Below are positions 3,324-57,533 of a DNA stretch of 64,000 nt, one piece after another. A program made the translations under genes and the position numbers. This DNA is from Candidatus Omnitrophota bacterium (GTDB lineage: Bacteria > Omnitrophota > Gorgyraeia > Gorgyraeales > Gorgyraeaceae), in the NCBI GenBank assembly GCA_018824145.1, contig JAHJHC010000032.1, forward strand, positions 5,330-69,329, given 5' to 3'. The notes below the pieces were generated by a model that saw only the letters and a program-made list of their open reading frames with translations, made no database searches and had not been told where the DNA came from. The number at the start of each line of letters is the position of its first letter. Position 1 is the first letter of the stretch.

Positions 3324-4152
3324 ATCTCCCTGAAATCAGTTCGCGTAGAGCTCTATCAGCAAGCTCGTGACGGACACGAAAGTATTCTAACCTTACTTTT
3401 TTGTCTTCATCCTTCAGCTTCTCGCTCGATTCATCCAGGTGAATATAGCGGGCTGAAAATTCCGCTAGCCGGCTTACTCCAAAAATATAATGAAGCTTCT
3501 CTCCCATCCAAAGGTATACCAAATACTCGATCATATCTCCCGGCCTTGACTCCAGGATTATATCCTGATTTAAAGCGGGAATGGCCTTGCTTACATCAGG
3601 GGGGCGAAAAGGCAGAAAAGATACTGTTTCTATATGTTGCACTCCAAAGGAAACAGCTCGCGGATGTACCACTTTAACCGTATCAAACTCATTGGCCAAT
3701 GCCTTTTGGAAAATATAATCGCGCAGTTGCATTGCCTGTGTATGCCTTTCCTCATCCTGAATCCCGGGAAAGTTTACTGTCGAGTAGCCTTGTCCACTAA
3801 CATACATTTTTCCGCGCGCCCCGATAATGACCATTGTCGTAGGCATTTTCTGGGCCTCCTCAAGAGCTGCGTTTATAACTTTCATATTAAGTCCGCCCAA
3901 AAAACCGGCATCTGTGGTTATAGCAATAATAGCCTGTGCTCGTCCTTTGGCTTTCATGAAAACATGATTTACCGTATCCATATCAATATCTTTTAAAAAA
4001 CTTTCAATCGAAGGAAAAAATTCCTTAAAAACATTCAATCTCTTTTCCATCATATAATACTGTGCAATAGCAATCGATTTCAGCGTCTCAATCAAAAGCG
4101 ACAGCCCTTTATTGAATTCCATGTCTTTTTTTACGCTGATTAATGTCCTCAT
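3304..4152 (-). CDS. atpG: F-type ATPase gamma subunit.
   Basis: The 282-aa protein has AIITTDAGFLGGLNMKV (compare STDRGLCGGLN) and a C-terminal helix KVRLEYFRVRHELADRALRELISG typical of gamma. It lies between the alpha and beta genes. Confidence 0.75.
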   Translation of the reverse strand: MRTLISVKKDMEFNKGLSLLIETLKSIAIAQYYMMEKRLNVFKEFFPSIESFLKDIDMDTVNHVFMKAKGRAQAIIAITTDAGFLGGLNMKVINAALEEAQKMPTTMVIIGARGKMYVSGQGYSTVNFPGIQDEERHTQAMQLRDYIFQKALANEFDTVKVVHPRAVSFGVQHIETVSFLPFRPPDVSKAIPALNQDIILESRPGDMIEYLVYLWMGEKLHYIFGVSRLAEFSARYIHLDESSEKLKDEDKKVRLEYFRVRHELADRALRELISGRYVRGKK

Positions 4153-4153
4153 G

Positions 4154-28900: not shown

Positions 28901-31900
28901 GGTTGCAGTGGAGTACTCGACGTAATCCTGAACTTTATATCTTCTGCAGCCAGATTCAGAGGCAGCAGATTATCATGCGCACCAACTGTATCCCATGTAT
29001 ATGTATTTTCATTAGCAACTCCTGAGCCGTGTTTATTATTGGCAACTCCATTCTTTATCAACAGCCATTCACCTGATGTCCCTGAATCCTTATTCCAGTA
29101 TTCGAGTTTTACTGCAGAAACACTATCACCTATAGTATTCCATTTAATTACAAAGGATGGCGTCAATGAAGTAACATGAAACTCCTCACTGCCTACAGGA
29201 TACGCAAATGTAAATGAGGCTGTTATTTTAAATGCCTCTGATGTAGTAGTAGTTGCATCATCATAATTATCATTGGCATCTTGGATCCTTATCTGTACAT
29301 TATTCCCGACTTCATTAGGAACACCAGCCGGATCCCATGCCCCACCAGCAGATGCTGGATTATATCCTGCTACTCCGTCATCTACGTCAACATTGGCTTT
29401 TAAGAGCACCTCACTTGTTCCGGTGCCATAACCGTCATAATCTATATATATATCTACAGCACTTACATCTCCGTCATAATGCCACTTGATCAGCTTATCA
29501 GTTGCACCTACCTGCCAATTATGTGTATCATCAGGCTCGTCTATATATATCTTACCAGCTACCCTGAAGTCTGTCTGCATCATGGCATTTACATCATCAT
29601 CAAAGTTGGAATCTGCATCCCGGACCGCGATACGTCCCTGCAGGGTCCTTGTTGAAGGTACTGTTATTGTGGCGCAGCTTCCTTGAGCAGTAGACCAATC
29701 ATCCATTATCGGCGTATCTGTCCCAAAGTTAAAACCTCCTGAACCTGTTGAACTATAGTAAATATCTACTGTATCAACCTGTGCGCTTGTATCCGTCCAT
29801 GTAACTTCCTGGTTAGTAGCACCTGTTATCCATACGTTTGCTACATCCGGTGGATCTGTAGGAGTTATTGCGACATTTGATAAAACAGGGTATGCGCTGA
29901 ATGCACCTGATTCTCCTTCTACATCAGCATCGACTCTTATCACTGTATCCCTTACCCTGACTGTACAGGCATTGCTCTTTACATCAGGAACTGACGACGG
30001 TAGAGTAAAGTCCTGCGGGTTGCCATTACCTGCTGTTGCTACACCGCCGCTGTCTAATTGATGCTCGACTCCGTCATCACCGTCATAGAGAAATACATAT
30101 ACAGTGCCTAAAGCACTTCCATAGGCAGAGAATTTTACTATCTTACCTGTATCTCCGACTTTCCAGTCAACGAACGGAGAGTAATCTACTGTAGGTGTCT
30201 GGACTAGAATATTAGCCCTCATATCCATGGCAGCTGAGGCATTGCTCTTTATATCTGTAAAACTTGCATTGTCATGCACTACCTTGAATTTTATGGTATC
30301 CACAAGGGGTGTACTAATAGGGATAGTCCAAGGATAGTTTCCGCTTCCTACCTTTGAAGGCAATAAACCTGTATTGAACGCCTCTACATTGAATGGATTA
30401 AGGCCTGTCACAACATCATATTCGTCTCCTGAGAAATTTCCGGAAGGAGACGCAATTATTTTTACATAATCCAATTGCCCGTGGTCTACCTCCCAGGATA
30501 TGGTCTTTTCCTCTGTTATCCTCCATGTAGCTGTAGCTGTAGGGGCAGTAAGGGTAAGTGCGCCTTTGATCCTGAAAGCATCACTTGGGACAAATGTTCC
30601 GTCTGTGCCTGACTTTTCATAATTTGCGTCTTCAATCAGTAATATATACTCGTCAGTTACCGGGGTCTCCGGTACCTGCCATTGGCTCGCTGTGGATTGT
30701 TGTGTAGAATTTATAGTCGCAAATGTGCGGTCTTGAGCTATTACATTGGAATAATTATCAACACCATTATTTGTAGAGTATTTTACGTTTACTGCATAGA
30801 TACGTCCGTCTCTTTCCCATGTTATAGTATTGGAACTCGCACAGTTTAAACCTGCCGAAAGCGCGCCTACAGTAGGTGCTATCAGCCTTAATTGACCTTT
30901 TACCATAAAGTCAAGAGATTCATCTGTGGCATATGTATCAAACGGAGCTACTGCATCAGATACCTTTATAAGTGAACCATGAGCGGCATCTACTCTGGTA
31001 ATAAAGTCGCCTTGTGCTGGGTCTGTTGGGATAGTCCATTGATATGCGCCTTTATTTGCTGCTGCATCTCCTGCTTCTCCTGACTGCTCAGTGAGCTCCA
31101 CATAAGATTCACTTACGTCTCTGGTGTAGAATACCTTTACGTTGCCCACAGGTCCGAAAACATTCCATGACACTGTATTAGCTGTTGTACCATCCGCAAC
31201 CCACGTTACACCTTGTGTAGGGGCAGTAACTTCTATATCTCCGCATAGCACAATAGTAGCTGATTCCAATTCTGTATCTGGCTGGTTCGGAGTTACGGCT
31301 GTAATCCTGAATTTAACATTTGTCGCAGCAAGGTTTACTGGAAGCGGCCCTGTTGAATCAGCATCCCATGTATAACTATTTTCAGTGTCTCCCCAGCTAT
31401 TGTTGGCAAGGCTGGGTTCTATGGGAGTCCATCCATTAACATTATGGAAATACTCGAGTTTCACTGCGGTTATATTCGTACCGCTGGTCTTCCATTTTAT
31501 GAGGTACCCAGTAGGATCTGTATCATCATCAATGTGATGAACTTCTCCTACTGCAGCGGGTTTTGTAAACTCAAATCCGCCAAGTATAGGGAAAGGATCT
31601 GATGTATCAGTTGTTACAGTATATGCATCAACATCATCTATTTTAATCTTTACATTGTTTCCAACATAATCACCTATACCTTCGTCAGTCGGATCTCCGG
31701 GATCTTCCCATGTCCAGCTATTATACCCGCTTGAACACGCAATCGTAGTAAGTGTCTCATCCATAGTGCCATCACCATTATAGTCAGCATAAATCTTTGC
31801 ATCCCCTATAGTACCTTTAACATTCCATTCAATCAGACGGGTCGTATCCCCTACTGTCCAGTCCAAACACGTGTCATCAGGCTTAGAAATAACGATCTCA

Positions 31901-34900
31901 CCTATGACGTCAAATGGATTTGATTCTCCATAGACAATGCCAGTATAATCTACAGGAGAAGTCTGGGCATCCTCTATACGAATATTCGCGCTGTTTGTAA
32001 GGGTTGCAGGAAGCACTACAGTGGAGGTATATGATAAACTGGCTGGAGGAATACCTGTCTTATCTATATTAGATGCAAGGGTCTTTGGATATCCTGCGCC
32101 TGAATTACCATCTTCCAGAATTATATTAATGTTCGTGGTCGGAGCAGCTATTGCACTCCATTCAATAAGATTACTATTACTTTCAGCTATCCACGCCTGT
32201 GAAGGTGTAGTAACTGTTATTTTTGGCTTTAATGTAAAAAAGGTTGTTTCTACATCGATATCATTATTCTGGTTCGATATAACACGGATCTTACATTGCT
32301 CACTTCTCTGCTGTTGTTTTGTATCTGCAGCATGCCATAAATAAGTATTGGTGCCTGACTTAAGGCCTGCTGGATTATTATCATGTCCGTCATATGCATT
32401 ATCGATCGTAGTGTATCCTGTACCTTCAACATAAAGTTCGATCTTTACAGTTGACATAATACCAGTTGCTTCCCAAGTAACATTATGGTCTTCTCCAACA
32501 TACCATGTCCCAGGTGTAGTGATCGAGGTAAGGTCTCCTTTAATAATAAATGTATCACTTTCATCCTGCAGTTCATATGGAGCGCCCAGGCCATCATAAT
32601 TTATTGCAGTGGTACGGATCTTACACAAGTTATAAATCTTATCGGGGACTGTCCAGCTTAGAGTAACTCCAGTTTCACCGGATGCTCCTGGAGTCCGTGA
32701 ATCAGGAAGGCCTGATCCTCCTGCATTGTCCAGCCAGTCACTTCCGTCCCATAATTCAAATTTAAGATTCCCTGTATCTCCGTACTTCTTCCATTTTACT
32801 GTAACACTGTCTCCAACAGTCATCTCCTGATCCAACACAGGCTGCATCATCTCTAATTGGCCGACAACAATATTTGCCTCACCTACAGCAGTTTCTGCAT
32901 ACACATCCTGTCCATCAAGGGCATCTTCAACTCGGAAAAGCACCTTATTGTCCATAGCTGGATTTGTTATATCAGAATCTATAGCAGTATAATCTGTAGA
33001 AGTTACGCCTCCTGCTAAATCACTGCCGATCTGTGTCCACTGTGTATCACCGATATTCTTATAAAATGCCTTTAAATTAGTAAAACTACCGACATTCGAC
33101 CAATTAATAGTATGTACTCCTGATCCTATTGTTATGGTCTCATTCTTTGTACTGGGATCCCCAGGCGGCTGGTCAAATAAAATATTTCCTTTAAAGGCAT
33201 GTGTAGGAGAACCAGCCATTATAGGCCCGAATATATCAAATTCGTGGTTCATCTCTCCTACTCTGATCTTCACTTCAGGCGCAGTACTTTCAGGGATATT
33301 AACAGTATAAGGCGTCCCAGGGACATTTGTGCAATAATCAGGGGCAATTTCAGTGGCTCCGGAGAATGCTACCCATGAACCATCAGGATAACTTGCTCCT
33401 GAGTTTGTATTATACATAATCTTTACATTCCCTACGTCACCCTTTACATTCCACTCTATGTCTCCTGTACTCAAGACATTGTATCCCTGATTAGTTAGAG
33501 GGCTGTCAATAACGATTTTACCTCCTATACTAAAAGTCGGAGATATAGAAACAACATCCGTATCTTCATATTTCACCTGCTCATCATCTTCTTCCACTCT
33601 TACCAGCTTGATCTTCGCATTATTATGCGCAACAGTATTAGTCTCAGGGATCGTCCATAAAGAACCACTGGCTGTAGACGCCCATGTTGGCTGTTCATAC
33701 CAATTGGTTCCATCAGGTGTAGAATAGAGTCTCACCCAGCCAATTAAACCTGTTGTGGTCCAGGTAATGGCTTTACTTTGTTCTATAATCCACAGGTCGC
33801 CGATACCAGGCGGAGTCCCTATAAAAATCCTTGGTTTTATCTCAAAGTCATACAGAGATTCATCTGATACAGAGGTATCATTATGGTCTCTTACACGCAC
33901 TCCGGCCTTATCAGTTGTAATTGTCTGCCTGTCATTCTCAGCAGGTATACTCCATGAGTAAGGTGAAGATCCTCCTCCGATTTGCGATGCAATCGTAAAA
34001 TCTGTATAATCATTATTCCCGCTATCTGTATCTAAGAGTATATCTACTTCAGCTATACCACCTGTAACAGTCCATGTAATAGTCGGAGCGCCTGTAGCAG
34101 GCGGCTGTGAAAATCCGTCAACAAACCATAACTCTATATTCTGGTCATCCATGCCAGGTGAACCTAAATACACAGCACCTTTTACTACAAAATTACTCTG
34201 AGAGTTCGCAAAGACATAGGTACCGTCATTATTATCATAAATCTTTACTCTATATGTTATACCAGCTGTGGCAGGAACCTGCATTGAATGATGGCAAATA
34301 TTGCTTCCATCTTCATTTTTGTCATGAGCAACAGTAGCTACAGGTATATCATATAAAGTGCCTGAATCATCATCATAGTATATTTCGCATGTACCTAAGT
34401 CCCCCTTATATCTCCACTGCACATCTATATCCGCGCCACCCACATAATATACCTCGCCACCGTTAGGCGCTTCCATCCAATGGTTCTTTTCGCCTCCTGA
34501 TATTGCGTAAAGTTTACCTTTAATATGGAAGTCAATATCCGTAGCATGCTTTACACTGGTCTCGTCTGCGTCTTCTATCTTTATCTCATTACCGGAAGTA
34601 GTACACTTATTTGCAGGGACTGTCCAATCGTAATAGCTGTTACCACTTGCCGGTAAAGTAGTTATAGGCGTCCCAACATTTCCTAAACCATCTTCCCATG
34701 TTACACCATCCGGCGCATAATATAATTTTAAATCACCAAGGTCATACCCGCCCGTCTTACCCACGTTGTCATTAACTACCCACTCGATCCTGAAGGTCTC
34801 TTCAGCGATCAATGCATCAGCATTTATATTGCTTGCATCCGGGCTAGTTATCTCTAACTTGCCTAGTACAGTCAGTTCTGAAGATTCCTTATATACATCA

Positions 34901-37900
34901 GTCGCATGGGCAACGCTCTCAACCCTTATACGTATATCATTGTCAGGAGGAGTAACTTGCTTGGTAACAGGGCAATCTATCTTCGGCCATGAAAACGAAT
35001 CTACATTTGATATACCACTCGCTATAGTACCACCCCAACCCCCAGTTCCTCCCTCTGTATCATATTTTACATTCACAGTCTGTACACCGTTTGTTCCTGT
35101 GCCTCCGCCTTCTGTCTCCCATGTAATATTATAGTTAGTAGTTCCTACATAAACAGTTCCAGTAGATGGAGAAAGATTGACAAACCTTGCCTTGATAGTA
35201 AGTTTATCTGCAACAGATATAGATTCTATGCGATCATCGTCTTTTGCCCTGATTTTTATCCTTATCTGTGAATTCAAACCATTGTCTCCAACCTTAAAAA
35301 CAGTATCATCATCTGGTATAGTCCATGTATATGACTCATCAGTTGCAGTAACTACACCTGGAGTATCAACAATAGCATTAGTGTAGTTATCAGAACCATT
35401 ATTCTTTGAATAATAAATATAAATGTCTCCTATGCCTGAACCTTCTGCATCCCAGATAATAGCATTCTGGGCCCCGCATTCCCAATCAGGGCTCACAGCA
35501 GGAGAGCCGGCATTCTGCGGAGGTGTTGTAAGCTCCAGACTCCCAAGGATAGCAAAGTTATTTAGTGATGCGTCACTTACATCATCTTCATCTCCTACCT
35601 TAACAGAATACACCTTTATCTTACATTGCTGGCTTACAATGCCCGGAAGATTCTCAATGGTCCAAGTGTAATAAGACTCATCCTCATATGTAGTATCATA
35701 ATTATTTTCAGAAGGGATGGAGCCGCCTAGTAAGGCATCATAGTCAGTGCCGCCATTTGTCGAGTATGCTATCATTACATCTCCAAAATCAAAATCAACA
35801 GGCTTCCACCTTATATCCATTGTCTCGCCTATTGTCTTCACTATACCTGTAGCATCAGGATAGCTCAGCTTGATCTGGGGTTTTACAGCAAAATCAGCTG
35901 TCCCTGTATTTGATTCACCAGCAGTCCCTGTAACCAGATCTTCATCTCCCTGTAAGGCCACCATTATCATATCGTTTGCCCCTTCATGCACAGGAAGGAC
36001 TGTCCAGTTGAATGTTCCAGCTGTGATGTCAGTTGTATCAGGCGTGGTCAGTTCGTAAGTATAGTTGCTTCCGCTGTTCTTTGAGAGCATTATCTTGGCC
36101 CATCCGGTTATAGATCCGTTCACATCCCAGGTTATAGCAGTTGTCTCACTTGTGTCAGAGATCTTAACAAAATTTGTAGTCGGAGCTGTAACTACTATAG
36201 ATCCTTTTATCTTGAATGCAGGGCTTTCATGATATATATTCGTCAGACTGTAGTCCTGGACCTTTACATAGACTTCATTATCCAGGTCATTAGGGATAGT
36301 CCATGCATATTTTAAATCAGTTGAAGGCTTATCTACTCCAGGGGCTATTTCAGCGTAGCCACCAGCCCCTTTCTTATAAAACACCTTTACCTTATCATCA
36401 GTTGTGCTCCCCTTTAAAGTCCACTCTATATCCCTCTGGGTTCCATATCTCCACACATCATTAAGTTCCGGCTTTGTAATTGTAACTACCTGCTCTATTG
36501 TGAAGACAGCAGCTGATTCATCATCAATATCACTAGGATATGCAGCACTCTCTATTCTGATCATGGCTTGTGTAGATTCCGGAGCTGGAACAGGATCCCA
36601 TGTCCAAAAACACTGGTTCGAATATGTAGTATTATAATTATTCGCCACATCGATCCCGACTCCGCCGTTTAACTTTTCCCATGTACCTCCAGTATTCCTT
36701 GAAATGGATATATATACCTTATTATTACCAACAGGCCCTACATCACCTTCGTATTCCCATATAATGTCATGGGAAGTACCCACCTGCCATGAAGGCGCGC
36801 CACCATCATGCTGAATAAGGGTCACGGTAGCGTCTATGTCAAAAACAAGGTCAGATTCATCCTCTACTCCTGTAAGCTCAGCCTGTGAACTCTCTATCTT
36901 GACCATGGCTTCATCACTTATAGGCAACTCCGGAGTCCACTGGTAATAGGATTGGTTCGTATAGGTAGTATTGTAATTTAGATTCGCTGCTACTTCATCT
37001 ATATACTCCCATGCAACACCGCTATTCCTTGATACGTAGAGTTTCACATTGGTCGTGGACAGGTTGCTTGTATTTGACCATACAATATGTCCGTTATCAC
37101 CTGTGGTACTGCCTGTAATCCATCTCTCATCTCCACCCATAGGCTCTACAAGTGTTATTGAACCTTGTTCTATAGTGATGCTGGCGCTTTCGCCGTATAC
37201 AGTCGAATCCGCTATGTCAGACTGGACTACCTTTATCTTGGCGTAATCATCCTGAGCAGGCTGGACAAGACTAAAAGGTATATCCCAATCATATGAACTC
37301 CCAGTGCCGGATGCCCCTGCAGGCTCATCCAATTTAATAGGCGTGTTATATGATAAGCCGTCATTATTTGAATAAAATATATTTACCGTGCCATCAGTAA
37401 TGCCTGTACCGAAATGTCCATGTTTCATCCAGGAAATAGTCTTATCCTGCTCACCAAGATACCAGGTTGTAGGAGAAGTAGGAGTTACACTGGTTATACG
37501 GCCTCTTAATGTAAACGGCTGAGATATAGTTTGTACAGTTGTATTCGGGGAATCAGGGTCATAATTTGAAGTTATCTTAATGACACAATTCGTGCCGATT
37601 AAGTTCTCTCCGTCTATTGCAGCAGGTATTGTCCAGGGAAAAGTGCCGCTTCCGCCGTCGCCTGCTCCGGTACCGACACTGGTAGTAGTGCTTAACGGCG
37701 TACTAAGGTAAGTCTGTCCTCCGTCAATAGAAAGCTTTATTGTAACAGTTGTCGTACTTAAAGTATCCAGGTGCCCCAAATAGTCCCACGTAATATCCTG
37801 CTGTTCCCCTATCCTCCAGGTATTTGGCGGCTGGTCAATAGTCAAAACTCCTTTTATAATAAAATCCTCATTGGATATATCAATGTTTCTTGCTGACATA

Positions 37901-39993
37901 TCCGTATCTGTAATCTTGACCCTAAGCTGTTCGCCTATAAGATTCGTTCCACTGATATCTGCAGGTATATCCCATCCATAGAACCCTGTAGGGCAATGTG
38001 TATCTTCTTCAACTGGCGATGCTGGCGTCTCGTAAATAGCTGTTCCTATATATCCAGAGCCGCCGTTTACAGAAAGCTCTATCTTTACTTTATGCTGATT
38101 ACTGTATCCTGTGCCTCCGCTATTGGTAGAATCAGCATAGACCCATACTATATCCTTAAGCTGTCCTACGGACCAGACCTCTTTCTCTTCTGTATAATCA
38201 GGCGGCAGTCCGCCATTGGGTACCTTTACTGTAAGAGGCGCAAGCTCCACTACATAATTACTTATGTTTATAGCCACGTAAGTATCGACTCGGTTTAAGG
38301 TAAGGGTAGTAGCAGGCGGCCCTCCTGATAGATCAGCCCTTATCCATTCAGAACCAGTAGTAGCACTCCTCGTAGTAGAGCCTCCTGAAACGCTGTAGGT
38401 TATAAATGACCTTGTATCATCTATTGTATAATCCAGGACCTGATTCTGTGCATTGGCAGCTGCAGCAATGCTCTGAGAATACTGCTGGATCAGAGTAGAT
38501 TCATCAGTAAATTCTACGACAGACCATGCGATTTCCATATTTCCTGCTGTGCCTACGCGGTCAAATGTAAGCGTAGTAGGATTAGTTATTACGCCCCGCG
38601 TAAAAGTATCATCCCAGTATGTAGCAGTAATTGCATTAAGATAACTAAACACAAGAAAGCTTTTATCTACATCCACTTCCTCTGGTATCTCTGCTGTAGT
38701 AGATGAGACTGCGACAGCCATCGTAGCATAGGAGGAATGATGCTGGACTTTGGCATCTGTCTCAAATGAGACAACCTGCCACATGATATTACAGGCCCGG
38801 GCGCCTATGCCTGTACCACGCTTGAAATACAGCGTCTTTGAAACCCCTCCTCCTGCAACCGGGGGTATATATTCATACACTTCAAAGTAAATATCCCTAT
38901 CGCTCTCAGCAGTGCCGTTCCAATAACATATGCCGTCAGGATACGGATTTCCAGTCATCCTCCTGATATTTACGTCAGAGGCAGTATTCCCTCCAGGCGT
39001 ATCGCGCAGGTCAATATAATAAGTCTGATTATCATTAAGCGTTACCGGCGTAGAGAATTCTATATCAAACCATCCCCAGCTACCAGGAAGGGTAGTCGCA
39101 TCTATATTGGTGACACTGGAATCAGTAACTATCGTACCGTTCTCTGTCTCTCTGATGGAAAAATCCACATACTGCGGAGCAGGGCTGATAGCATTTCTAT
39201 CTATGTAAAGACTGACCTTATCCAGCTGATAAGTAGCACCAGTACTGTCATACTTAAACTGTTGTGCAAGTCTATAGCTGGAAAGCGTGGTGCCCACATA
39301 ACTGACTGCACCACTATTACAGTATGAAATAGGCCCGGGTGCTGCCTCGCCCTCTATGAATTCACCCAGCGGGAATACATCAGGTACATTAGTTACAATA
39401 TAAGCATTGGGGCTTAATAGTAAAAAGCTCTTATTCATATCTACTTGGAACGGCAGAATAGTGTATCTATCCTGTTTATCTTCGGCAAGGATTGTTACGC
39501 CTCTCTGGACAAAGACCCCGTCTGTAAACTCCACAATGCGCCAGTTTATATTCCTGGTAGAATACTCTTCCTGAGCGCCCAGCTCTAACCGGTAGGCATC
39601 ATAAAAGTCCACATATATAAGATTACCTGCCTGATAACCTGCTGTTGAATCATTACTATCAAGTGTTGCAAAGGCAACGCATTTAGTTACATCACTAACA
39701 GGTGTATGGGCATCTGGAGAGCCTGTATAGCCGTCTGTGCCGTCATCTATCCAGACAACACGCACAAAGCTCGTACCCGCACTTCCTGTAGGAGCAAGTG
39801 TAGCTGTGCCTTTATAGACCTTCTTCACCTGCACTGCTTCTGCCTCTGGCACTAAATAAACCATAGAGGAAAGTAGATACACCCCTCCCGTAAGCAATAT
39901 TGCCCCAATGAAGACGCCTAGATTTTTCAGTAATCTTTTCTGCAGATTCAGATTTTTTTCTTTCATCTTCAGAAAATTATTATACGTCTTCAT
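7984..39993 (-). CDS. Giant surface or adhesin-like protein of 10,669 aa. It has an N-terminal signal-anchor, a unique roughly 600-aa N-terminal region, more than 100 tandem Ig-like beta-sandwich repeats of about 90-100 aa, and a non-Ig C-terminal region.
   Basis: It is a single uninterrupted ORF of 32,010 bp. The N-terminus KNLGVFIGAILLTGGVYLLSSMVYLV is hydrophobic. A recurring domain signature (...W.VG....I.W...G....V.I.YS.DGG.....I.......Y.WT.P......IKI.D..) runs throughout. A GGAGG SD lies upstream of the ATG. Confidence 0.9.
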   Translation of the reverse strand: MKTYNNFLKMKEKNLNLQKRLLKNLGVFIGAILLTGGVYLLSSMVYLVPEAEAVQVKKVYKGTATLAPTGSAGTSFVRVVWIDDGTDGYTGSPDAHTPVSDVTKCVAFATLDSNDSTAGYQAGNLIYVDFYDAYRLELGAQEEYSTRNINWRIVEFTDGVFVQRGVTILAEDKQDRYTILPFQVDMNKSFLLLSPNAYIVTNVPDVFPLGEFIEGEAAPGPISYCNSGAVSYVGTTLSSYRLAQQFKYDSTGATYQLDKVSLYIDRNAISPAPQYVDFSIRETENGTIVTDSSVTNIDATTLPGSWGWFDIEFSTPVTLNDNQTYYIDLRDTPGGNTASDVNIRRMTGNPYPDGICYWNGTAESDRDIYFEVYEYIPPVAGGGVSKTLYFKRGTGIGARACNIMWQVVSFETDAKVQHHSSYATMAVAVSSTTAEIPEEVDVDKSFLVFSYLNAITATYWDDTFTRGVITNPTTLTFDRVGTAGNMEIAWSVVEFTDESTLIQQYSQSIAAAANAQNQVLDYTIDDTRSFITYSVSGGSTTRSATTGSEWIRADLSGGPPATTLTLNRVDTYVAINISNYVVELAPLTVKVPNGGLPPDYTEEKEVWSVGQLKDIVWVYADSTNSGGTGYSNQHKVKIELSVNGGSGYIGTAIYETPASPVEEDTHCPTGFYGWDIPADISGTNLIGEQLRVKITDTDMSARNIDISNEDFIIKGVLTIDQPPNTWRIGEQQDITWDYLGHLDTLSTTTVTIKLSIDGGQTYLSTPLSTTTSVGTGAGDGGSGTFPWTIPAAIDGENLIGTNCVIKITSNYDPDSPNTTVQTISQPFTLRGRITSVTPTSPTTWYLGEQDKTISWMKHGHFGTGITDGTVNIFYSNNDGLSYNTPIKLDEPAGASGTGSSYDWDIPFSLVQPAQDDYAKIKVVQSDIADSTVYGESASITIEQGSITLVEPMGGDERWITGSTTGDNGHIVWSNTSNLSTTNVKLYVSRNSGVAWEYIDEVAANLNYNTTYTNQSYYQWTPELPISDEAMVKIESSQAELTGVEDESDLVFDIDATVTLIQHDGGAPSWQVGTSHDIIWEYEGDVGPVGNNKVYISISRNTGGTWEKLNGGVGIDVANNYNTTYSNQCFWTWDPVPAPESTQAMIRIESAAYPSDIDDESAAVFTIEQVVTITKPELNDVWRYGTQRDIEWTLKGSTTDDKVKVFYKKGAGGYAEIAPGVDKPSTDLKYAWTIPNDLDNEVYVKVQDYSLTNIYHESPAFKIKGSIVVTAPTTNFVKISDTSETTAITWDVNGSITGWAKIMLSKNSGSNYTYELTTPDTTDITAGTFNWTVLPVHEGANDMIMVALQGDEDLVTGTAGESNTGTADFAVKPQIKLSYPDATGIVKTIGETMDIRWKPVDFDFGDVMIAYSTNGGTDYDALLGGSIPSENNYDTTYEDESYYTWTIENLPGIVSQQCKIKVYSVKVGDEDDVSDASLNNFAILGSLELTTPPQNAGSPAVSPDWECGAQNAIIWDAEGSGIGDIYIYYSKNNGSDNYTNAIVDTPGVVTATDESYTWTIPDDDTVFKVGDNGLNSQIRIKIRAKDDDRIESISVADKLTIKARFVNLSPSTGTVYVGTTNYNITWETEGGGTGTNGVQTVNVKYDTEGGTGGWGGTIASGISNVDSFSWPKIDCPVTKQVTPPDNDIRIRVESVAHATDVYKESSELTVLGKLEITSPDASNINADALIAEETFRIEWVVNDNVGKTGGYDLGDLKLYYAPDGVTWEDGLGNVGTPITTLPASGNSYYDWTVPANKCTTSGNEIKIEDADETSVKHATDIDFHIKGKLYAISGGEKNHWMEAPNGGEVYYVGGADIDVQWRYKGDLGTCEIYYDDDSGTLYDIPVATVAHDKNEDGSNICHHSMQVPATAGITYRVKIYDNNDGTYVFANSQSNFVVKGAVYLGSPGMDDQNIELWFVDGFSQPPATGAPTITWTVTGGIAEVDILLDTDSGNNDYTDFTIASQIGGGSSPYSWSIPAENDRQTITTDKAGVRVRDHNDTSVSDESLYDFEIKPRIFIGTPPGIGDLWIIEQSKAITWTTTGLIGWVRLYSTPDGTNWYEQPTWASTASGSLWTIPETNTVAHNNAKIKLVRVEEDDEQVKYEDTDVVSISPTFSIGGKIVIDSPLTNQGYNVLSTGDIEWNVKGDVGNVKIMYNTNSGASYPDGSWVAFSGATEIAPDYCTNVPGTPYTVNIPESTAPEVKIRVGEMNHEFDIFGPIMAGSPTHAFKGNILFDQPPGDPSTKNETITIGSGVHTINWSNVGSFTNLKAFYKNIGDTQWTQIGSDLAGGVTSTDYTAIDSDITNPAMDNKVLFRVEDALDGQDVYAETAVGEANIVVGQLEMMQPVLDQEMTVGDSVTVKWKKYGDTGNLKFELWDGSDWLDNAGGSGLPDSRTPGASGETGVTLSWTVPDKIYNLCKIRTTAINYDGLGAPYELQDESDTFIIKGDLTSITTPGTWYVGEDHNVTWEATGIMSTVKIELYVEGTGYTTIDNAYDGHDNNPAGLKSGTNTYLWHAADTKQQQRSEQCKIRVISNQNNDIDVETTFFTLKPKITVTTPSQAWIAESNSNLIEWSAIAAPTTNINIILEDGNSGAGYPKTLASNIDKTGIPPASLSYTSTVVLPATLTNSANIRIEDAQTSPVDYTGIVYGESNPFDVIGEIVISKPDDTCLDWTVGDTTRLIEWNVKGTIGDAKIYADYNGDGTMDETLTTIACSSGYNSWTWEDPGDPTDEGIGDYVGNNVKIKIDDVDAYTVTTDTSDPFPILGGFEFTKPAAVGEVHHIDDDTDPTGYLIKWKTSGTNITAVKLEYFHNVNGWTPIEPSLANNSWGDTENSYTWDADSTGPLPVNLAATNVKFRITAVTPNQPDTELESATIVLCGDIEVTAPTQGVTWVADGTTANTVSWNVFGPVGNVKVFYTRDVSESYVELTEQSGEAGDAAANKGAYQWTIPTDPAQGDFITRVDAAHGSLIKVSDAVAPFDTYATDESLDFMVKGQLRLIAPTVGALSAGLNCASSNTITWERDGRIYAVNVKYSTNNGVDNYSNVIAQDRTFATINSTQQSTASQWQVPETPVTDEYILLIEDANYEKSGTDGTFVPSDAFRIKGALTLTAPTATATWRITEEKTISWEVDHGQLDYVKIIASPSGNFSGDEYDVVTGLNPFNVEAFNTGLLPSKVGSGNYPWTIPISTPLVDTIKFKVVHDNASFTDIKSNASAAMDMRANILVQTPTVDYSPFVDWKVGDTGKIVKFSAYGSALGTVYVFLYDGDDGVEHQLDSGGVATAGNGNPQDFTLPSSVPDVKSNACTVRVRDTVIRVDADVEGESGAFSAYPVLSNVAITPTDPPDVANVWITGATNQEVTWTDTSAQVDTVDIYYSSTGSGGFNFGTDTPIMDDWSTAQGSCATITVPSTRTLQGRIAVRDADSNFDDDVNAMMQTDFRVAGKIYIDEPDDTHNWQVGATDKLIKWHYDGDVSAVDIYIDYDGYGTGTSEVLLKANVDVDDGVAGYNPASAGGAWDPAGVPNEVGNNVQIRIQDANDNYDDATTTTSEAFKITASFTFAYPVGSEEFHVTSLTPSFVIKWNTIGDSVSAVKLEYWNKDSGTSGEWLLIKNGVANNKHGSGVANENTYTWDTVGAHDNLLPLNLAAEDIKFRITSSTPLQPSTAKVSNEFVICGNIAVTAPTQGLTLVADGTTANTVSWNVYGPVTNVKIAYSRDSKSNYVELVSSMSAEAGDAAANKGAYQWTIPTDPSLGDYITRVDASESSYIKVEDASTFGQYVSHESLDFIVKGQLRIIAPSVATLADGFVGRETTPVTWERDGRINAVNVKYATDGVTFSNSLVSDRIFATTAATQQSLASDWIIPETPLTPDYKILIEDTNYEKSGTSGTYVLSNPFTVKGALTLTAPSSTTTWNITDTNKTISWNVAHGEISKVKIIASPSGNFTGDEYVVDTNLNPFSVSAFSAAATPVGSGSYQWTIPVTAVLSDTTKFKVRDMNETDYADVISAASVAMYIRGKITVKTPTVDYLPSDDWNVGDTDKQVKFTTYGDTMSTVYVYLYDGVAEHQIDGGSGIATNGNGSEETFGGSGEFTVPDVKSHNCTIRVRNAESSPTAEGESGGTFSTYPVISNVAITPTDPPNTAGVWIAEAADQTVTWTETSAELTTVDIYYSSTGTGGFNFETDTPIVDNWSTAQGSCATITVPTERTLQGRIAVRDADSNFDDYINAMIPANFKVCGEIFIDEPDDTHNWQVGATDKLIKWHYDGDISAVDIYIDYDGYGTGDPEVLLKANVDATQGSAGYNPASAGGAWDPNGVPNEIGNNVQIRLQDADSNYESVTTTTSEAFKITASFTFAYPVGGETFHVASTTPSIQIRWNTIGDNVSAVKLEYWNKDSGASGEWLLIKSGIANNKHGSGVANENTYTWDRVGAHDNLLPLNLAAEDIKFRITSSTPDQPSTAKLSNEFVICGNIAITAPTQGLIWTADGATANTISWDVFGPVTNVKILYSRDSGVGYVELVSTMAAEDDDGDGDADEDDTIPNKGSYDWTIPTNPATGDYITRVDAGDDSYITVEDTSTFGTYVTDESLDFIVKGQLRIITPSAATFANGFTGRASTQITWERDGRINAVNVKYATDGVTFSNVITADRTFATTAATQQSLASAWIVPETPLSISYNILVEDTNYEKSGADGTFVESGNFRVKGQLTLTAPSSTDTWNITDTNKTISWDVNHGEISKVEIIASPSGNFTGDEYVVDTNLNPFNVSAFNGVATPVGSGSYSWTVPVTAVLSDTTKFKVRDDNETDFPTVITAASPAILIRGKIAVKTPTVDYLPSTDWHPGDSDKQVKFTTYGDTMGTVYIYLYDGAAEHDLAVGGISTNGDGNEETYNVPQVPDVKSINCTIRVRNAESSPTVSGESQGTFSVYPTITGVTITPSTGDEGSNPPIWRAGLGSQTVTWTENDIATPGLISEVQILYTATGGTPDTALNTGGAVTTHEICNTITAPAALSFDSAIVRVRDADTDFQDKIYADSSAFRMLGRIQYGASPSLDADWFIGDDSRQVIWSAFGTEITQLDVYADYDDGAGFNYITTIAANSSPWTFEDPEGSGTVGDNVTESAQIRLQDNDTDRGPLTQYNSVTFHIAGKFETIAVTAVDPEDTVVVSNRAAIVTWAKTGTLISDVLMQYTTNGTNWYNIVNNLEADTTTLVSNNESYSWTSPATVMSQLCKIKITDPDNSAAQGISAANFTIAPKCKVLQPDSNDSWEANDTETIEWQKWGTFPNVNIYYRPDDQTAWDLLNDAETVPSHGGDGLNGTWGWYIDEEVVLSPTAEIKVVDKDRETYTLAILSDQFTTRGSVEMLWPDDGTEGYNVYEAGIAKNIKFKRYGNIEGVKLYLWDGDSWDLMTDLGTNGVIDFVGAETEHITSWSPPEFIGTSYKIKCQDKNNADIDSESPPFKIKGKVKITDPDLQQPTWYITDQDKRIRWDVQHGNIAFVKIEISPSGAFGGDEYLIIGQTQADNEIAFDKDTSPVAKGFYDWDIQRDTPLSTIARIRVKDYNETDYDDVASTSGADVTIRGKISVQTPGVDWNVKDTGRLITWNAYGAISTVWIDFYDGNQWLLSINGAGGTACGDGDNKTWSVANWDVHGKIPDMKSNACQIRIKNATSNPTISETSGTFYVYPTITNVDIVPSVGDEAKDHTIWRAKLANQTVTWTENDISDDTLVDTVDIVYSKAGTFADAVTIKEDVLTHESCATITAPTNLSFQSAKIRVQDNDTGFENKVYGDSTEVFSVLGRVVYGASPSLGANWGIGAVDKLINWTAYGDQLTQVDIYIDYGSSYIYQKTEDTVPESPDSWTYDDIDTGVDGVGDYAAENVTVRIEDVDTDRKAYTQYLSPAFNIIGSFEFAYPLGGETFHIDDDTSPSPLQIQWKTTGSDVSKVKLEYYHNVNGWTLIDGNVDNNYGDGVQVNTYDWGPASSTPLPVNYAATDIKFRITSVVPNHPATELESEEFVICGTLDVTAPEQGEIWVADGATANTISWDVYGPVTNAKISYSRDSGVGYTVIVPTQLAEAGDAQANKGAYQWTIPVNPASGDFITRVDAADVSYIKVEDASATYGTYVNDESLDFIVKGQLTIIAPTAGTLASGFVGRDSTQITWQRDGRINAVNVKYATDGVTFSNVIAADRTFATTAATQQSLASAWIVPETPLTPNYKILIEDTNYEKSGTDGTYILSNTFTVKGALSITAPSTTTTWRITEQKTISWDVDHGQINKVKIIASPSGNFTGDEYTVDTNLDPFNVSAFSAAATPVGSGSYPWTIPVTADLTDTTKFKVRDANETDFADVISTASVVMYIRGKITVLTPSVDYAPFGVDWKVGEADKQVQFRSYGDTMSTVYIYLYDGTTEYDLAVGGTSTVGNGNIETYNVPSVPDVKSHNCTIRIRDAAVSPNAEGESGTFSAYPTISSVAITPTNPPNIAGVWVSDSENQTVTWTETSSKLTTVDIYYSATGTGGFNFETDTPIVDNWSTAQGSCNTITVATNKTTQGRIAVRDADSNFDDYINAMTATNFRVAGKIYIDEPDSAHNWPVGATDKLIKWHYDGNLTAVDIYIDYDGYGTGDPEVLLKANVDVDDGVAGYNPASAGGVWDPDGVPNEVGNNVQVRIQDGDSAYEDATTTTSDAFKITSSFTFAYPTGGEPFHVDSLTPSFVIKWNTIGDSVSAVKLEYWNKDSGASGEWLLIKDGVANNKHGSGVANENTYTWDTTGAHDNPIPLNLAAEDIKFRITASTPLQPSTAKESNEFVICGNVEVTAPSQGDIWTADGATANTVSWDVYGPVTNVKISYSRDTGGGWTELVASMAAEDDDGDGDADGDDTIPNQGSYDWTIPTNPATGDYITRVDAGDDSLIKIEDTSTFGTYVVDESLDFIVKGQLTIITPTAGTLASGFVGRDSTQITWQRDGRINAVSVKYATDGVTFSNVIVADRTFSTTAALQQSLASAWIIPETPLIPNYKILIEDTNYEKSGTDGTFVLSDAFKVRGALTLTAPATTTTWRITEQKAISWDVNHGEINKVKIIASPSGNFTGDEYTVDTNLDPFNVSAFNGVATPVGSGTYQWTIPVTADLTDTTKFKVRDANETDYSSVISAASVAMYIRGKITVLTPTVDYAPFDIDWNVGDTNRQVKWRAYGDTMSTVYIYLYDGTTEHNLAVGGTATVGDGNIETYNVPQIPDVKSNNCTIRIRDAQTSPKAEGESAGTFSAYPTISGVTITPSAGDEGSNPPIWRAGLENQTVTWTEDIISDDNLISTVQIYYSSTGTGGLPGTLLLDNVNTEETCSAITAPLQLSYNQAVIRVRDKDTGFEDKVYGDSSPFRVLGRIVYGLSPAQDANWFVGETNKTVNWTAYGNQLTSVDILIDYDDGEGYQYLKTESTVPGSPDTWTFDDPDAGIDGVGPHITLTTQIMIQDVDTDRQTYTKYESPTFHIAGNFDINDALLPTTLSAGDPYTIKWENYDLQGQIPIAKLEFFDGTTWHDIDYKTNPTGHTGLVTNSESCSWSVPTDVKSVACQFKISDPDNAAAVDLSATFEIRAVITVTSPDSNDKWVIGTSGNLIEWNVTGLIGTVGSPNVFEIVYSNDDGVTYPPYGGYVINSSYTATPPVSYPWTIPTDEDILTKDQAMIKVADASLAAACGESDSFMMKSGITVTEPETTDVLTVGTAFTIEWTTLGTADMGDVIIQFSKTGSAPWTNIATVDFEYGSSSYNLWAPAIDSITDDTKAAIVRITDVDNTEVTDDSEAFEIEGDIVWESPIESGLMWSVNTSYDIEWTPTGTFGPIKIEYSTNAFADELETNYFTSVANSAHGVRRVYPFTVPNDIDDQVKIRISHEYDSDVKAVVPYNIKFVGSLDVTAPDSQTPKPIWLKGQSKNITWTAIGDVTNVDIQYKTSAGGNYIDIILDHDGGGAYGDGSNTYQWTVEDENSENCYIKVSDTLHHTGAATDVYSVSTYPFSIRPVITVSQPVEDSNLVVLSDGHTISWSLNGSEQVSYVKLYYSVDGGSFEDLDVSGNVDATSDYTWDNIPDAISDDVVVRVVDNVNSSVYGDSPSFDIIGSITVVKPDSNSNWEVGTTDKNITWSYTGSIGLVNIYYDYGQGYDLVDASNMPVAASGQSYTWSSIPDHVSESVKIKITDEDTETAVDKVEDESVPFKIRGGFVLDAIPAYVISASGRTITWTPNGADILIAKLEFSSNNGGAWRNIDYVSAGNPGTGFVSNSGAYSWTVPSDVASTTCLVKISDPDNADAKHTSNSFEVRAKITLDSPTTSDAWVVNDNHDIEWTVTGVVNNVNIEYSVAGGDFGWVLGWAAGEDPQVDPVGQASNISASDGSFTWKIPDQMSDEINVRIADTTKPNDVKDESGNFTITGKIVLGAPVGGETWYVLDQKTISWTKTGNIPLVDVLWSEPTINGGAYQYITDGEDLTENSTTWSVPSVISDSVKVRIVNSDATKPTIAAVSDFFYVRGKLLITSPQLDQVWDSGAQKNITWTTTGPIPEVTLDYDYDGVGTGVDWITIDTDITASDQSYPWTVPPTISSNVVVRVTDELYNEVTNTSPVFKIANIVVTRPQAGDPWICQEQEDINFTVSGAITNVKIEFSSNGLSGPWTEIEPSLAVSQDANTYTWNSVTTVASTHTIIRIKDTNQKSFVTGFSPEFIVRGGFTFLHPISTDRWLANSAKTIEWTTKGTILNVYIRYRLDDQDNFDFVNDGSTISNNNQYPWTVPNAISYEAQIKISDAQDSSATTESAPFTVHGQLTVTQPNDSSSKLKAGQFDQDSKIIWTMIGPISRVDIYLSTTGDVEENYEYMTYVEGATEYSWSVPTDKGRSTNCFIRLKDPSDPQELVKDESDTAFWIIDNITVLTPDGTVPWIAGNTHAVTWTSEDIATSVDIKYKKDAPYDTWPGTVISGITNDATNSYDWPIPNSIDLTHTYRIRVSDANATYSAYCFDTSVDFTIQGTITVTEPNGGTAPDFLDMEKWGCDLTHYVKWTSQGNITNVDIAYYLGSTPPSNPNDWVDIITNYSNSGAKEYPWDIPITLTAENVLIRVKDHNTAFPDVKDVTDNPFKIMARVVVEEPETGYVWEAGTQGTIKWTRYGPSSFDKVKIEYAYNNPDFTDPGDPQDPTDIKVITSSEQFVGSVGNFGWNIPPEAVGFESMRIRISKHDDPDVYDISDAFTIRVNFTSISPNGGQKWILGHTETISWTKTGITYSDTARTQEAVKLTVYLQANPTIKYVIGVQPSSGTAGIYDWTIPTTLDYRLITDNMGLIMRVEDPNYDDPTDTDAYKDSASPFKIMPDIIVTSPVSDEQWFVNDTNRYITWTITDTTVPTLGNVTMYYSLTGGSSWTAISGSSTPATDEEWLWVPKVPDIISSQLKIKVESNDDSDCYGVAPHTVNAQTGFPNRNSFTTAPYAKISAKFTIDPNITGQDLVVGDSYQITWTNTGTVTDVKITYSLNGDTGPFDPIDEDNDPQTADTGIVANGASGGSFDWTVPDDIARDTVKLRVESSLDSDAVDTSGLFRIMGEITINAPVGGPSWEIGQDKDIKWNWVGTIPEVEITYSTNGLTGPFNPVDEDNDPGTANTGLVTNGAGAGGPGAEHTFTWTVPDEASANVIIRVADARDGTSPVGDQTDIIGESQSFEIIGYIITHAPVADEKWAVASSHDITWEWGGTMPQVKITISQNGVGGPFVPIDEDNDPGTANTGIVTNGVYDPQNPGATHSFTWIVEDYISPTCVIKVADARTLLESIVNDDSGEFKIQGDFTLTSPAIALKEGGDPAEVLDYECRWVTNEVREVTWTTFGTIPKVDIYYSKDNFADIDPADGVPDNQILIKNDLGQQALDWDNTGTFDWKIANDRSDTVKIRIYDHNDPDVFIEGPYVDPGFPAGVSTTMKIDYYTITWDIRDLITNQHINGLTVSEVSTSGWPGWDATGVSSPKNHDVTADNWTATFTHKDYGPIEVTYFTGVDEEGKVWGDRKIFRTMETLVVHIWRAYSEFSYDVETDRLDITSWLERDGSLVPGALVVDVKIYDGFEQIKRKTILVQEEDTPQAGDPEKHYFYEDIPSTVDIWLGTSWDPDLEQEVERFQFENIADCATYKTGEIQTPIDFAGFFPQTWTPTSHTSGGTAYDTLQAGKVYTVKTYIVLGTGGNFTTPVSFTVTIPTAMASMEDSLENMDDKIDYVLDKPMSVISGEIQASMDQQIILLDQKTDEVVDIVSAQTETIETKMNEQSALIDSKTDEMIAMVDMTLTSFETRTQSAIEDLQEGADMAVEAGETLMETALKYSWGASVSPNPVLTNETVTINCQGQPGLAPVIDIYDVNSNLVYSSIMKESSDGVYVYEFEADDSFEAGKAYSFIIQESETGGLVTGSGMVGKYEWSVAVFPDPALTGDTITLQCIGLPNLLPQVYIYAWDGDAIEEGLLMTQDTPGMYIAKVEADGNFPAGKAYTYMVTEQQTGTVLVGSGMVESMSITTVAGLAAAAPEASRAAKKALEAIKALEAVLISGDSINIALTLKNLKSSVDALPEIMSKEGPTAVITNAINEVSDRIKALAGEEGYDMGTILEEALTESPTVKEIRNKTDAINGTVDVVLQTFESKIGGIEDPIVLMQ
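17400..32200 (-). repeat. Nested tandem super-repeat inside the giant gene, with a period of about 2.33 kb (about 775 aa, 8 Ig-like domains) and five full copies.
   Basis: Conserved landmarks (KLEY[WFY]...GEWLLIK or HNVNGWT coding, read on the antisense strand) recur at about 31.4, 29.06, 26.69, 22.06 and 19.7 kb. Near-identical antisense pseudo-ORFs (..EKVTPSVAYFTLTAL..) sit at 18971, 21347, 25943 and 28373. VFSLATPEPCLLLA-type pseudo-ORFs sit at about 19.65, 26.6 and 28.9 kb. Confidence 0.85.
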
Positions 39994-40008: not shown

Positions 40009-40515
40009 TTAATCGCTTATTAAGACCTCGAGCTGATTCTCAGATTCTTCTTCGGAGTCAGGCTCAGGTCTTTTTATTCTTTTTGCAGCCCTCACAAAAC
40101 TAATACTTTTTGCGAGCCATTCTTCAGTAATCCTGTTTCCTCTGTTTGGCTTAGTTACCTCATGGTAAGTCACCTTCACAGCATCGCCGACTTTTATATC
40201 GTTTAAACCCTGTTTATGCACCACCTTTGTATCTTCATCAATAAGAAAAGAATAATCAGTATTTGTCTCGGCATCACCTACGGCAATAACCGTGGGATTA
40301 AATCTGGGTGTAAAATAAATAACCTCTCCTACCAACTCTTTTTCTTTAATCATCTCTTTCACAGGAGACTGTTCGCCTTCTCCTTGCTCTTCGTCGTCTT
40401 CCTGAGCAACTCCTGCCCCTATGCCTCCTAAGAGAAAAACCGCTATTAAAAATATGAGACATACAAAAATCTTTTTCATCCCGCTATCCTCCTTACTTTT
40501 AAAAATAATATTCAT
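40009..40515 (-). CDS. Small secreted protein of unknown function, located immediately upstream of and co-oriented with the giant gene.
   Basis: The 168-aa protein has a signal peptide (KKIFVCLIFLIAVFLLGGIGAGVA), an acidic linker, a beta-rich domain and an acidic C-terminus. There is a 15-nt gap to the giant-gene ATG. Confidence 0.6.
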   Translation of the reverse strand: MNIIFKSKEDSGMKKIFVCLIFLIAVFLLGGIGAGVAQEDDEEQGEGEQSPVKEMIKEKELVGEVIYFTPRFNPTVIAVGDAETNTDYSFLIDEDTKVVHKQGLNDIKVGDAVKVTYHEVTKPNRGNRITEEWLAKSISFVRAAKRIKRPEPDSEEESENQLEVLISD

Positions 40516-41780: not shown

Positions 41781-41797
41781 CTTACCTTTTCTCCTTC

Positions 41798-41850
41798 AAA
41801 ATGCCTGGCACCTATCTAAAAGTGCCTGGCACTTTCTATCTAAAAACAAA
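41798..41850 (-). promoter_or_regulatory. Candidate operator or promoter region of the HUH-fusion, secreted-protein and giant-gene operon. It is a tandem 21-bp direct repeat, and each copy carries the palindrome TGCCTGGCA.
   Basis: tgcctggcacctatctaaaa (41802-) and tgcctggcactttctatctaaaaa (41823-) are centred about 25 and 45 bp upstream of the ATG at 41780. An AAGGAG SD precedes the ATG. Confidence 0.4.
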
Positions 41851-41873
41851 AAATCCAGGCGCATTGCCTGGAT
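41842..41873 (-). terminator. Intrinsic terminator separating the TMTC cluster and mini-gene from the giant-gene operon.
   Basis: The stem ATCCAGGC/GCCTGGAT (41853-41860 and 41866-41873) has the loop GCATT. On the minus strand it is followed by UUUUUGUUUUU. Confidence 0.6.
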
Positions 41874-41880
41874 TTCTCCT

Positions 41881-41979
41881 TTAAGTTTCGGCAATCTGCC
41901 TATCCGCCTGAAGCGGACGCACGATTTTGCGTCTCCAGATTACTCTGGATTTGCCTTTTTCGACCTCAAATCTCTTCAA
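41881..41979 (-). CDS. Possible 32-aa basic small protein ((M)KRFEVEKGKSRVIWRRKIVRPLQADRQIAET). It starts at TTG and carries its own promoter and terminator.
   Basis: A perfect AGGAGG SD sits at 41989-41984 with a 4-nt spacer to the TTG at 41979. A TAA stop at 41883-41881 is followed immediately by the terminator. The ORF track omits it because it is under 60 aa and starts at a non-ATG codon. Confidence 0.25.
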   Translation of the reverse strand: MKRFEVEKGKSRVIWRRKIVRPLQADRQIAET

Positions 41980-41994
41980 TTGTCCTCCTATTAA

Positions 41995-42023
41995 AGTATA
42001 CTCTATAATACATAAAAAATCAA
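41995..42023 (-). promoter_or_regulatory. Near-consensus sigma70-type promoter (TTGATT-N17-TATACT) driving the mini-gene.
   Basis: On the minus strand the -35 element ttgatt (complement of 42018-42023), a 17-nt spacer, and the -10 element tatact (complement of 41995-42000) are followed about 7 nt later by the SD. Confidence 0.45.
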
Positions 42024-57499: not shown

Positions 57500-57533
57500 C
57501 TTTTTTTATCCTTTTCGTACCCAATTAAAAATT

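Follow-up and report, generated by a model that had tools for sequence, protein, structure and literature searches.

The DNA analysed here, referred to as the window, is the whole 64,000-nucleotide (nt) stretch from a Candidatus Omnitrophota contig. Our subject is a segment of its minus strand, 42023..41838, which lies in front of three consecutive genes, the last of them encoding a giant protein. From its 5′ end the segment carries a sigma-70-like promoter, a folded RNA element and an intrinsic terminator; the coordinates of these features and of the genes are collected in Table 1. We conclude that it is very probably the leader of the three-gene operon, in which an aptamer of the class I cyclic di-guanosine monophosphate (c-di-GMP-I) type and the intrinsic terminator control read-through into the genes. 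A first-pass annotation of the same DNA, made without database searches, had described it as a self-contained mini-gene for a basic peptide of 32 amino acids (aa), with a small RNA (sRNA) as the alternative. The parts on which that description was built are all present on the minus strand, i.e., the promoter TTGATT-N17-TATACT, the Shine-Dalgarno (SD)-like motif AGGAGG (41989..41984), a TTG codon 4 nt further on (41979..41977), 32 codons and a TAA. Right after this open reading frame (ORF) comes the terminator, a 13-pair hairpin (41878..41848) followed by GTTTTT.

Table 1. Positions of the leader elements, predicted ligand contacts and operon genes in the window
Feature	Position	Strand	Basis or detail
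Sigma-70-like promoter	41995..42023	-	TTGATT 42023..42018, 17-nt spacer, TATACT 42000..41995; 9 of 12 consensus positions
Chance ORF, 32 codons, TTG start, TAA stop (41883..41881)	41881..41979	-	Non-conserved as coding sequence
c-di-GMP-I (GEMM-I) aptamer, as predicted	41884..41966	-	Rfam RF03167, our own covariance model, covariation
Aptamer P1 core	CG 41962..41961 pairs with CG 41890..41889	-	
First aptamer hairpin, GUAA tetraloop	41949..41934, closed by GC/GC 41954..41953 + 41930..41929	-	
Second aptamer hairpin	41926..41893	-	
G, equivalent of Vc2 G20, contact to one ligand guanine	41955	-	Rfam consensus alignment
A, equivalent of Vc2 A47	41928	-	Rfam alignment; consensus GACGC-G-AA, window GACGC-A-AA
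C, equivalent of Vc2 C92, Watson-Crick partner of the other ligand guanine	41891	-	Rfam alignment; PMC6140456
Intrinsic terminator as expression platform	41838..41878	-	GAGAAAUCCAGGC-AAUGC-GCCUGGAUUUUUU, then GUUUUU
Two copies of the palindrome AAAGTGCCAGGCAC	41832..41822 and 41811..41801	-	Between terminator and start codon
First gene, 422 aa	40512..41780	-	SD sequence GAAGGAG at 41797..41791
Second gene, small acidic protein with hydrophobic N-terminus, 168-aa ORF	40009..40515	-	
Third gene, giant protein of 10,669 aa with N-terminal hydrophobic anchor	7984..39993	-	

A scan of Rfam, which the first-pass annotation had proposed as a check, found a c-di-GMP-I-type aptamer exactly under the 32-codon ORF. 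In Rfam 15, the family RF03167, which belongs to the c-di-GMP-I clan CL00126, matched positions 41964..41886 of the minus strand along the full length of its model (positions 1-80 of 80), with 60.5 bits against a gathering score of 59 (expect value, E, of 1.2e-13 in a local scan and 8.4e-12 for the whole 64-kb window). RF03167 was the only family reported above its gathering score across the 64-kb window; a second family of clan CL00126 was also above its own gathering score there. The two internal hairpins noted in the first-pass annotation are real and are both parts of the aptamer: tccaga/tctgga is its first hairpin, and ccgc/gcgg is the tip of its second. The 151-nt stretch as a whole folds at -51.2 kcal/mol (z = -4.2), and none of 200 shuffles folded as well. 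The two bulges of the second hairpin (G and AG) are located, as seen from the sequence alone, where a tetraloop receptor would be. The region is a class I c-di-GMP (GEMM-I) aptamer, of a type already well known. Two further matches were put down to chance. One was a hit to the Brucella BSnc120 family (20.9 bits against a gathering score of 114), which reflects the terminator only, and the other was a match of our own covariance model at 57434..57511 (12.5 bits, E = 0.85).

To follow the leader in related DNA, a metagenome scan was run with a two-sequence profile, yielding 30 loci (labelled here with L and a number), and a covariance model of our own was built from the window and L004. This model placed an aptamer 5′ of homologues of the gene for the 422-aa protein in L004/L011, L032, L012/L013, L006, L009 and L027, the aptamers of L004 and L011 being identical to each other, as were those of L012 and L013. 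In L007 it gave a split match with an insertion, i.e., a disrupted copy. Rfam independently confirmed five of the related aptamers, in each case with RF03167 as the best family (41.7-67.4 bits). The homologues of this first downstream gene are 30-50% identical, and the aptamer always lies just upstream on the same strand; it was absent upstream of loci whose similarity is confined to the N-terminal domain of the protein (L014-L018, L020, L029 and L035), and in L008 and L010 the upstream sequence was too short to judge its presence. An identical 422-aa protein occurs on three other contigs (SRR2544004, ERZ27247128 and SRR6514274), where the leader is also 100% identical. Its nearest relatives in genome collections are metagenome-assembled genomes of Candidatus Omnitrophota, with 31-36% identity over the best-matching segment.

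The order of elements was the same in every related leader: a promoter, the aptamer, a hairpin with a U-tract, one or two copies of AAAGTGCCWGGCAC, and a gene whose product starts MARLPR. A sigma-70-like site matching 8-10 of 12 consensus positions was found 21-48 nt 5′ of the aptamer in all eight related loci. The unit that had been described as self-contained is thus better understood as the 5′ leader of the downstream operon, with an arrangement that is conserved together with that operon.

Conservation of the RNA fold was assessed on the seven distinct aptamers, aligned by fitting to our own model. Standard pairs filled 97.6% of the pair cells, and 17 of the 24 pairs changed on both sides; none of 500 shuffles matched either the pairing or the covariation values, and pairing fell to 25-44% when the partners were slid by 1-3 columns. 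RNAalifold, applied to a plain MAFFT alignment of six sequences, recovered both hairpins, with 13 of 20 pairs covarying. The comparison of peptide with RNA structure in relatives, which had been suggested alongside the Rfam scan, therefore came out in favour of the RNA: the structure is conserved and the peptide is not. The loop of the first hairpin, GUAA in the window, is GCAA, GUAA, GUGA or GAAA among relatives, and in L009 a 41-nt insertion stands in its place. That insertion (the L009 aptamer spans 2236..2354) is branched, carries a CCCGAAAGGG hairpin and replaces the first aptamer hairpin, the junctions and the second hairpin being retained. In L007 (2206..2357) an insertion of about 60 nt separates the two aptamer hairpins, and Rfam misses this aptamer.

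The ligand of the Vibrio cholerae riboswitch Vc2 is contacted by G20, A47 and C92 (PMC4744006; PMC6140456). We mapped positions of the window onto Vc2 numbering by our own inference from the helix boundaries. The equivalent of G20 (G41955) lies directly 5′ of the GC that opens the first hairpin, that of A47 (A41928) lies directly 3′ of GACGC, and that of C92 (C41891) is the second junction nucleotide before the 3′ strand of P1. A change of G20 to A, whether natural or engineered, leads to recognition of cyclic AMP-GMP (c-AMP-GMP or cGAMP; PMC4744006; PMC6140456). The window has G41955 at this position, not the A that marks GEMM-Ib, and should therefore prefer c-di-GMP, which is the ligand that these letters predict. 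At the three contact positions the RF03167 consensus reads G, G and C (AAAG-GC; GACGC-G-AA; UG-C-CG), and the "GGC" in the name of this variant reportedly refers to them. The G at the A47 position that distinguishes the GGC variant is absent from the window: the middle letter is A both there and in all relatives (CGC-A-AA), and because of this we file the element as a canonical c-di-GMP-I aptamer and not as the GGC variant.

Two of the orthologous leaders, L012 (2229..2318) and L013 (2243..2332), have A at the position equivalent to G20 (AUAAGA-GCAAA), which is the signature of GEMM-Ib, and the leader of L007 (2206..2357) probably has A there as well. This A20 signature suggests that some related giant-gene operons may respond to cGAMP rather than to c-di-GMP.

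As regards mechanism, the stem of the terminator has 13 pairs, five of them G-C, and is followed by UUUUUUGUUUUU; the hairpin alone is worth -21.0 kcal/mol. The first gene starts 104 nt beyond the end of the aptamer. Transcription is predicted to start near 41988, and a polymerase starting at TTGATT/TATACT would transcribe the aptamer first. Occupancy of the aptamer by c-di-GMP while the next ~40 nt are made would then set whether the polymerase stops at the terminator or reads through, and the region 42023..41838 would constitute the promoter and 5′ leader of the three-gene operon. The mechanism best supported, by inference, is one in which transcription termination controls the operon.

Which way the switch works can be stated only tentatively. 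To an OFF switch, in which binding of the ligand promotes termination, we assign somewhat less than an even chance, and an ON switch is possible, if on the unlikely side. The OFF direction is favoured because the free-standing terminator shares no nucleotides with the core of P1, as in OFF designs that have a separate antiterminator. Two observations speak for it. In L012, the only locus to show an antiterminator, the probability of the terminator rose from 0.115 to 0.39 when the aptamer fold was enforced. The sequence AUUGCC at the 3′ end of the aptamer (41894..41889 in the window, and found in L006 too) is complementary to GGCAAU, formed by the top of the 5′ arm of the terminator and its loop (-8.8 kcal/mol). 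This 6-bp pairing could delay nucleation of the terminator hairpin in these two leaders when ligand is absent; in transcripts ending at the terminator loop, the probability of the antiterminator pairing was only about 0.1 for the window and reached about 0.4 for L006.

Several results weigh against a c-di-GMP riboswitch acting through the terminator. The margin of RF03167 over its gathering score is small (60.5 versus 59 bits), and the top-scoring model is that of the GGC variant, while its diagnostic G47 is absent from the window. Enforcing the aptamer fold made no difference to the terminator in the window, L006, L004 and L009, where its probability was about 1.0 either way; because this held in four of five loci, these calculations demonstrate no coupling between ligand and termination. 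The candidate antiterminator was no better than shuffled sequences (92/2000 for the window and 158/2000 for L006), and over six loci Fisher's combined p was 0.11. By analogy with adhesins that are activated by c-di-GMP, an ON switch might be expected instead of an OFF switch. With RNAduplex, pairing either the aptamer with its upstream leader or the last 20 nt of the aptamer against the 5′ arm and loop of the terminator revealed no consistent partner. An exchange of pairing based on the 5′ arm of the first hairpin (AAAUCCAG), which resembles the 5′ arm of the terminator in the window, was also considered, and was rejected when the similarity proved to be absent in L006 and L012.

Against the riboswitch leader have to be set four other explanations, of which the peptide gene of the first-pass annotation is barely credible in the light of the relatives. 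It would make a 32-aa basic peptide, (L/M)KRFEVEKGKSRVIWRRKIVRPLQADRQIAET, from its own promoter, SD sequence and TTG, ending before the terminator. In its favour are the AGGAGG 4 nt before the TTG, the 32 open codons, a stop 2 nt before the terminator stem, and a frame through the aptamer that is open in L004, L032 and L012 as well. However, the frame has no start codon in L009 and L027; in L007 it meets a stop after 15 codons, in L006 it meets one within the second hairpin, and in L004 and L032 its start is an ATG that lies 91 nt 5′ of the aptamer and has no SD sequence. AGGAGG is missing from the corresponding site in every relative. Variable columns are equally frequent at the three codon positions (0.70/0.71/0.68), and the relatives differ by indels of 1, 7 and 41 nt, which are not multiples of three. 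The residues that are shared, EKGK and RK.VRP, are the invariant aptamer strings GAAAAAGGCAAA, CGCAAA and GUGCGUCC in translation. AGGAGG with a start codon 4-12 nt 3′ of it occurs 12 times on this strand of the window, in only 4 cases at the start of a long ORF and in 8 not, so that the combination found at the 32-codon ORF is not beyond chance; ORFs of at least 25 aa are likewise abundant noise (56 within 6 kb). Because the frame is not conserved and the relatives carry no coding signal, such as codon periodicity, we regard the ORF as a by-product of the aptamer sequence. The same geometry could be read as a leader-peptide attenuator, in which a ribosome at the TAA covers the 5′ arm of the terminator and translation and c-di-GMP jointly set read-through. 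The stop codon (41883..41881) does lie 2 nt before the extended terminator stem, and the SD motif is near the 5′ end of the transcript, but the geometry of the ORF is conserved in no relative and the idea is drawn purely from that of one genome, which makes it extremely unlikely.

The remaining two explanations accept the RNA and dispute its action or its ligand. That the element is a stand-alone sRNA of ~145 nt, binding c-di-GMP in trans or serving as a sponge for the ligand, with the operon driven separately via the AAAGTGCCWGGCAC palindromes, we consider quite unlikely. The terminator is strong and forms in the model whatever the state of the aptamer, every relative has a conserved palindrome resembling a protein site between terminator and gene, and terminated riboswitch transcripts that act in trans exist in other bacteria, SreA and SreB of Listeria being examples. 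Yet the window showed no sigma-70-like promoter between terminator and start codon, and the aptamer keeps its position directly 5′ of one and the same gene, on the same strand, in relatives whose proteins are 30-50% identical, which is the signature of control in cis. No complementary target came to light either, though no search was aimed at one. The RNA alternative of the first-pass annotation was accordingly right in spirit, in that a discrete element does run from promoter to terminator; the element itself is very probably a riboswitch leader acting in cis. Very unlikely, too, is an orphan variant of the c-di-GMP-I-GGC type with a ligand other than c-di-GMP. RF03167 is indeed the top Rfam family for the window and all the related aptamers, at 41.7-67.4 bits, but the middle contact position is A, not G, in the window and every relative.

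Compared with known systems, the canonical c-di-GMP-I riboswitch leader proposed here most resembles Vc2 (RF01051, also in CL00126). Both have two side-by-side hairpins closed by a short P1, the invariant junction strings GGCAAA and CGCAAA, a GNRA tetraloop on the first hairpin (GUAA here), and G, A and C where Vc2 has G20, A47 and C92. The site of the inter-helix pair is occupied by a conserved C, within GAC, and by a bulged G of the second hairpin, and in both cases the 5′ leader is upstream of a gene for a cell-surface protein. The window differs in its intrinsic terminator platform, its Omnitrophota-like host and its operon, and it scores best on the sister model RF03167; Vc2 works without an intrinsic terminator (PMC4744006; bioRxiv 10.1101/617340). 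With the GGC variant it shares the top covariance-model score, similarity being greatest in the junctions and towards the base of the second hairpin, and it differs in the middle letter, which is G in the variant and A in the window. The c-AMP-GMP (GEMM-Ib) riboswitches of Geobacter (Kellenberger 2015, Nelson 2015, cited in PMC6140456) have the same fold, and the orthologous leaders of L012, L013 and probably L007 share their A at the G20 position, where the window has G.

Riboswitches of the c-di-GMP-I class in Bacillus and Clostridioides likewise have the aptamer followed by a rho-independent terminator, and they too are associated with cell-surface or motility genes. Cd1 of C. difficile is of this terminator type, as is Bc1 of Bacillus (PMC11218506). 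The switching helices have been mapped in those systems, whereas in the window neither a convincing antiterminator nor an aptamer-terminator overlap was found.

As a riboswitch the element is ordinary; some value comes from its giant-gene context. To our knowledge, what has been described of the giant genes of Omnitrophota comes solely from genome sequences. The surveys of these genes that we compared made no mention of riboswitches or c-di-GMP, and a full-text search found no paper linking them; a regulatory link from a c-di-GMP riboswitch to an Omnitrophota giant-gene operon thus appears to be unreported in the searchable literature. A conserved c-di-GMP sensor in front of the operon predicts that the giant protein would be made, or shut off, as cellular c-di-GMP changes. 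The aptamer could also be used as a reporter, and for annotation purposes a false small-ORF candidate is removed.

The three ORFs downstream of the leader are separated by a 4-nt overlap or a 15-nt gap. In the first, the N-terminal domain of the 422-aa protein matches Pfam PF01797 (Y1_Tnp; E = 2.4e-10) and NCBIfam NF047646 (REP-associated tyrosine transposase; E = 4e-19, which is below the curated cutoff). The protein thus combines a RayT / IS200-like Y1 domain with an apparent transmembrane helix and a C-terminal domain containing WETMQTNE, which is invariant in an alignment with the L004 homologue. A search of solved structures with the 422-aa protein gave no match. A free-standing ORF for the C-terminal domain with WETMQTNE also occurs directly 5′ of the riboswitch in L004, L006, L007, L012 and L032. 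At the presumed positions of the HUH motif and the Tyr, the 422-aa protein keeps H-L-H for HUH but has RHIHLNP where relatives have Tyr. At the corresponding positions the L004 homologue (3001..4197) keeps NYVH but has S-L-S in place of HUH. This suggests that the RayT-like domain may be catalytically dead and domesticated.

The second gene probably starts later than its 168-aa ORF: gene callers make the product 156 aa, and an AGGAGG at 40493 precedes an ATG. The 168-aa ORF weakly resembles the acidic lipoprotein LytA (E = 5.6e-4, a match well short of the cutoff). For the giant protein, the only Pfam match in its 10,669 residues is a single Kre9_KNH Ig-like domain, which occupies residues 2261-2340 in the translation of segment 19992..7987. 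The N-terminal portion of the giant protein (approximately residues 30-870) is conserved in L004, L009, L010, L028 and L032. The order of the gene for the 422-aa protein, the gene for the 168-aa ORF and the giant-gene N-terminus is kept in L004, L009, L010 and L032, and that of the first two in L012, L013 and L032. In L028 the giant N-terminus follows a partial match to the 422-aa protein (residues 225-414), without a gene for the 168-aa protein.

Between the riboswitch terminator and the start of the RayT-like gene there is always a nearly invariant palindrome, AAAGTGCC(A/T)GGCAC, in one or two copies. Among the relatives it lies at 2921/2964 in L004, 1074 in L006, 2426/2458 in L007, 2416/2448 in L009, 26/47 in L010, 2382/2446 in L012, 2396/2448 in L013, 3295/3316 in L027 and 2422/2465 in L032. 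Where there are two copies they are spaced 21-64 nt apart, and the exact palindrome was found nowhere else in the 209 kb formed by the window and the loci. One strand of it reads CTGGCAC, as in a sigma-54 site, and this assignment was dropped since no TTGC lies at the required spacing. The 3′ arm of the terminator carries GCCUGG or GCCUGAG in the six leaders mapped.

The palindrome may serve the RayT-like domain encoded next to it, as an operator or as a REP-like hairpin. A wider proposal, which we find doubtful, is that one family of Omnitrophota giant-gene operons possesses a two-layer module of its own, in which a cyclic-dinucleotide riboswitch (for c-di-GMP here, and of the A20 cGAMP type elsewhere) is combined with AAAGTGCCWGGCAC palindromes bound by the RayT-like membrane protein, whose Y1 domain is of a kind that binds DNA hairpins. 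If it were true, an intracellular second messenger and an envelope signal would be integrated in the expression of the giant surface protein, and a domesticated REP-type transposase domain would be working as a transcription regulator.

In the wider neighbourhood there are genes for tetratricopeptide repeat (TPR) proteins, radical-SAM/B12 enzymes, a family 9 glycosyltransferase, a secretin and ATP synthase; the 64-kb window contains neither GGDEF nor EAL genes. In L007, the homologue of the gene for the 422-aa protein contains a 35-bp perfect inverted repeat (2951..3027), on which Rfam made a spurious MIR7533 call (39.9 bits against a gathering score of 230). On the plus strand of the window, the stretch 41980..42009 reads TTGTCC-N18-TATAAT, which matches 10 of 12 consensus positions and overlaps the promoter of the leader; this site is probably a by-product of the A+T-rich promoter region.

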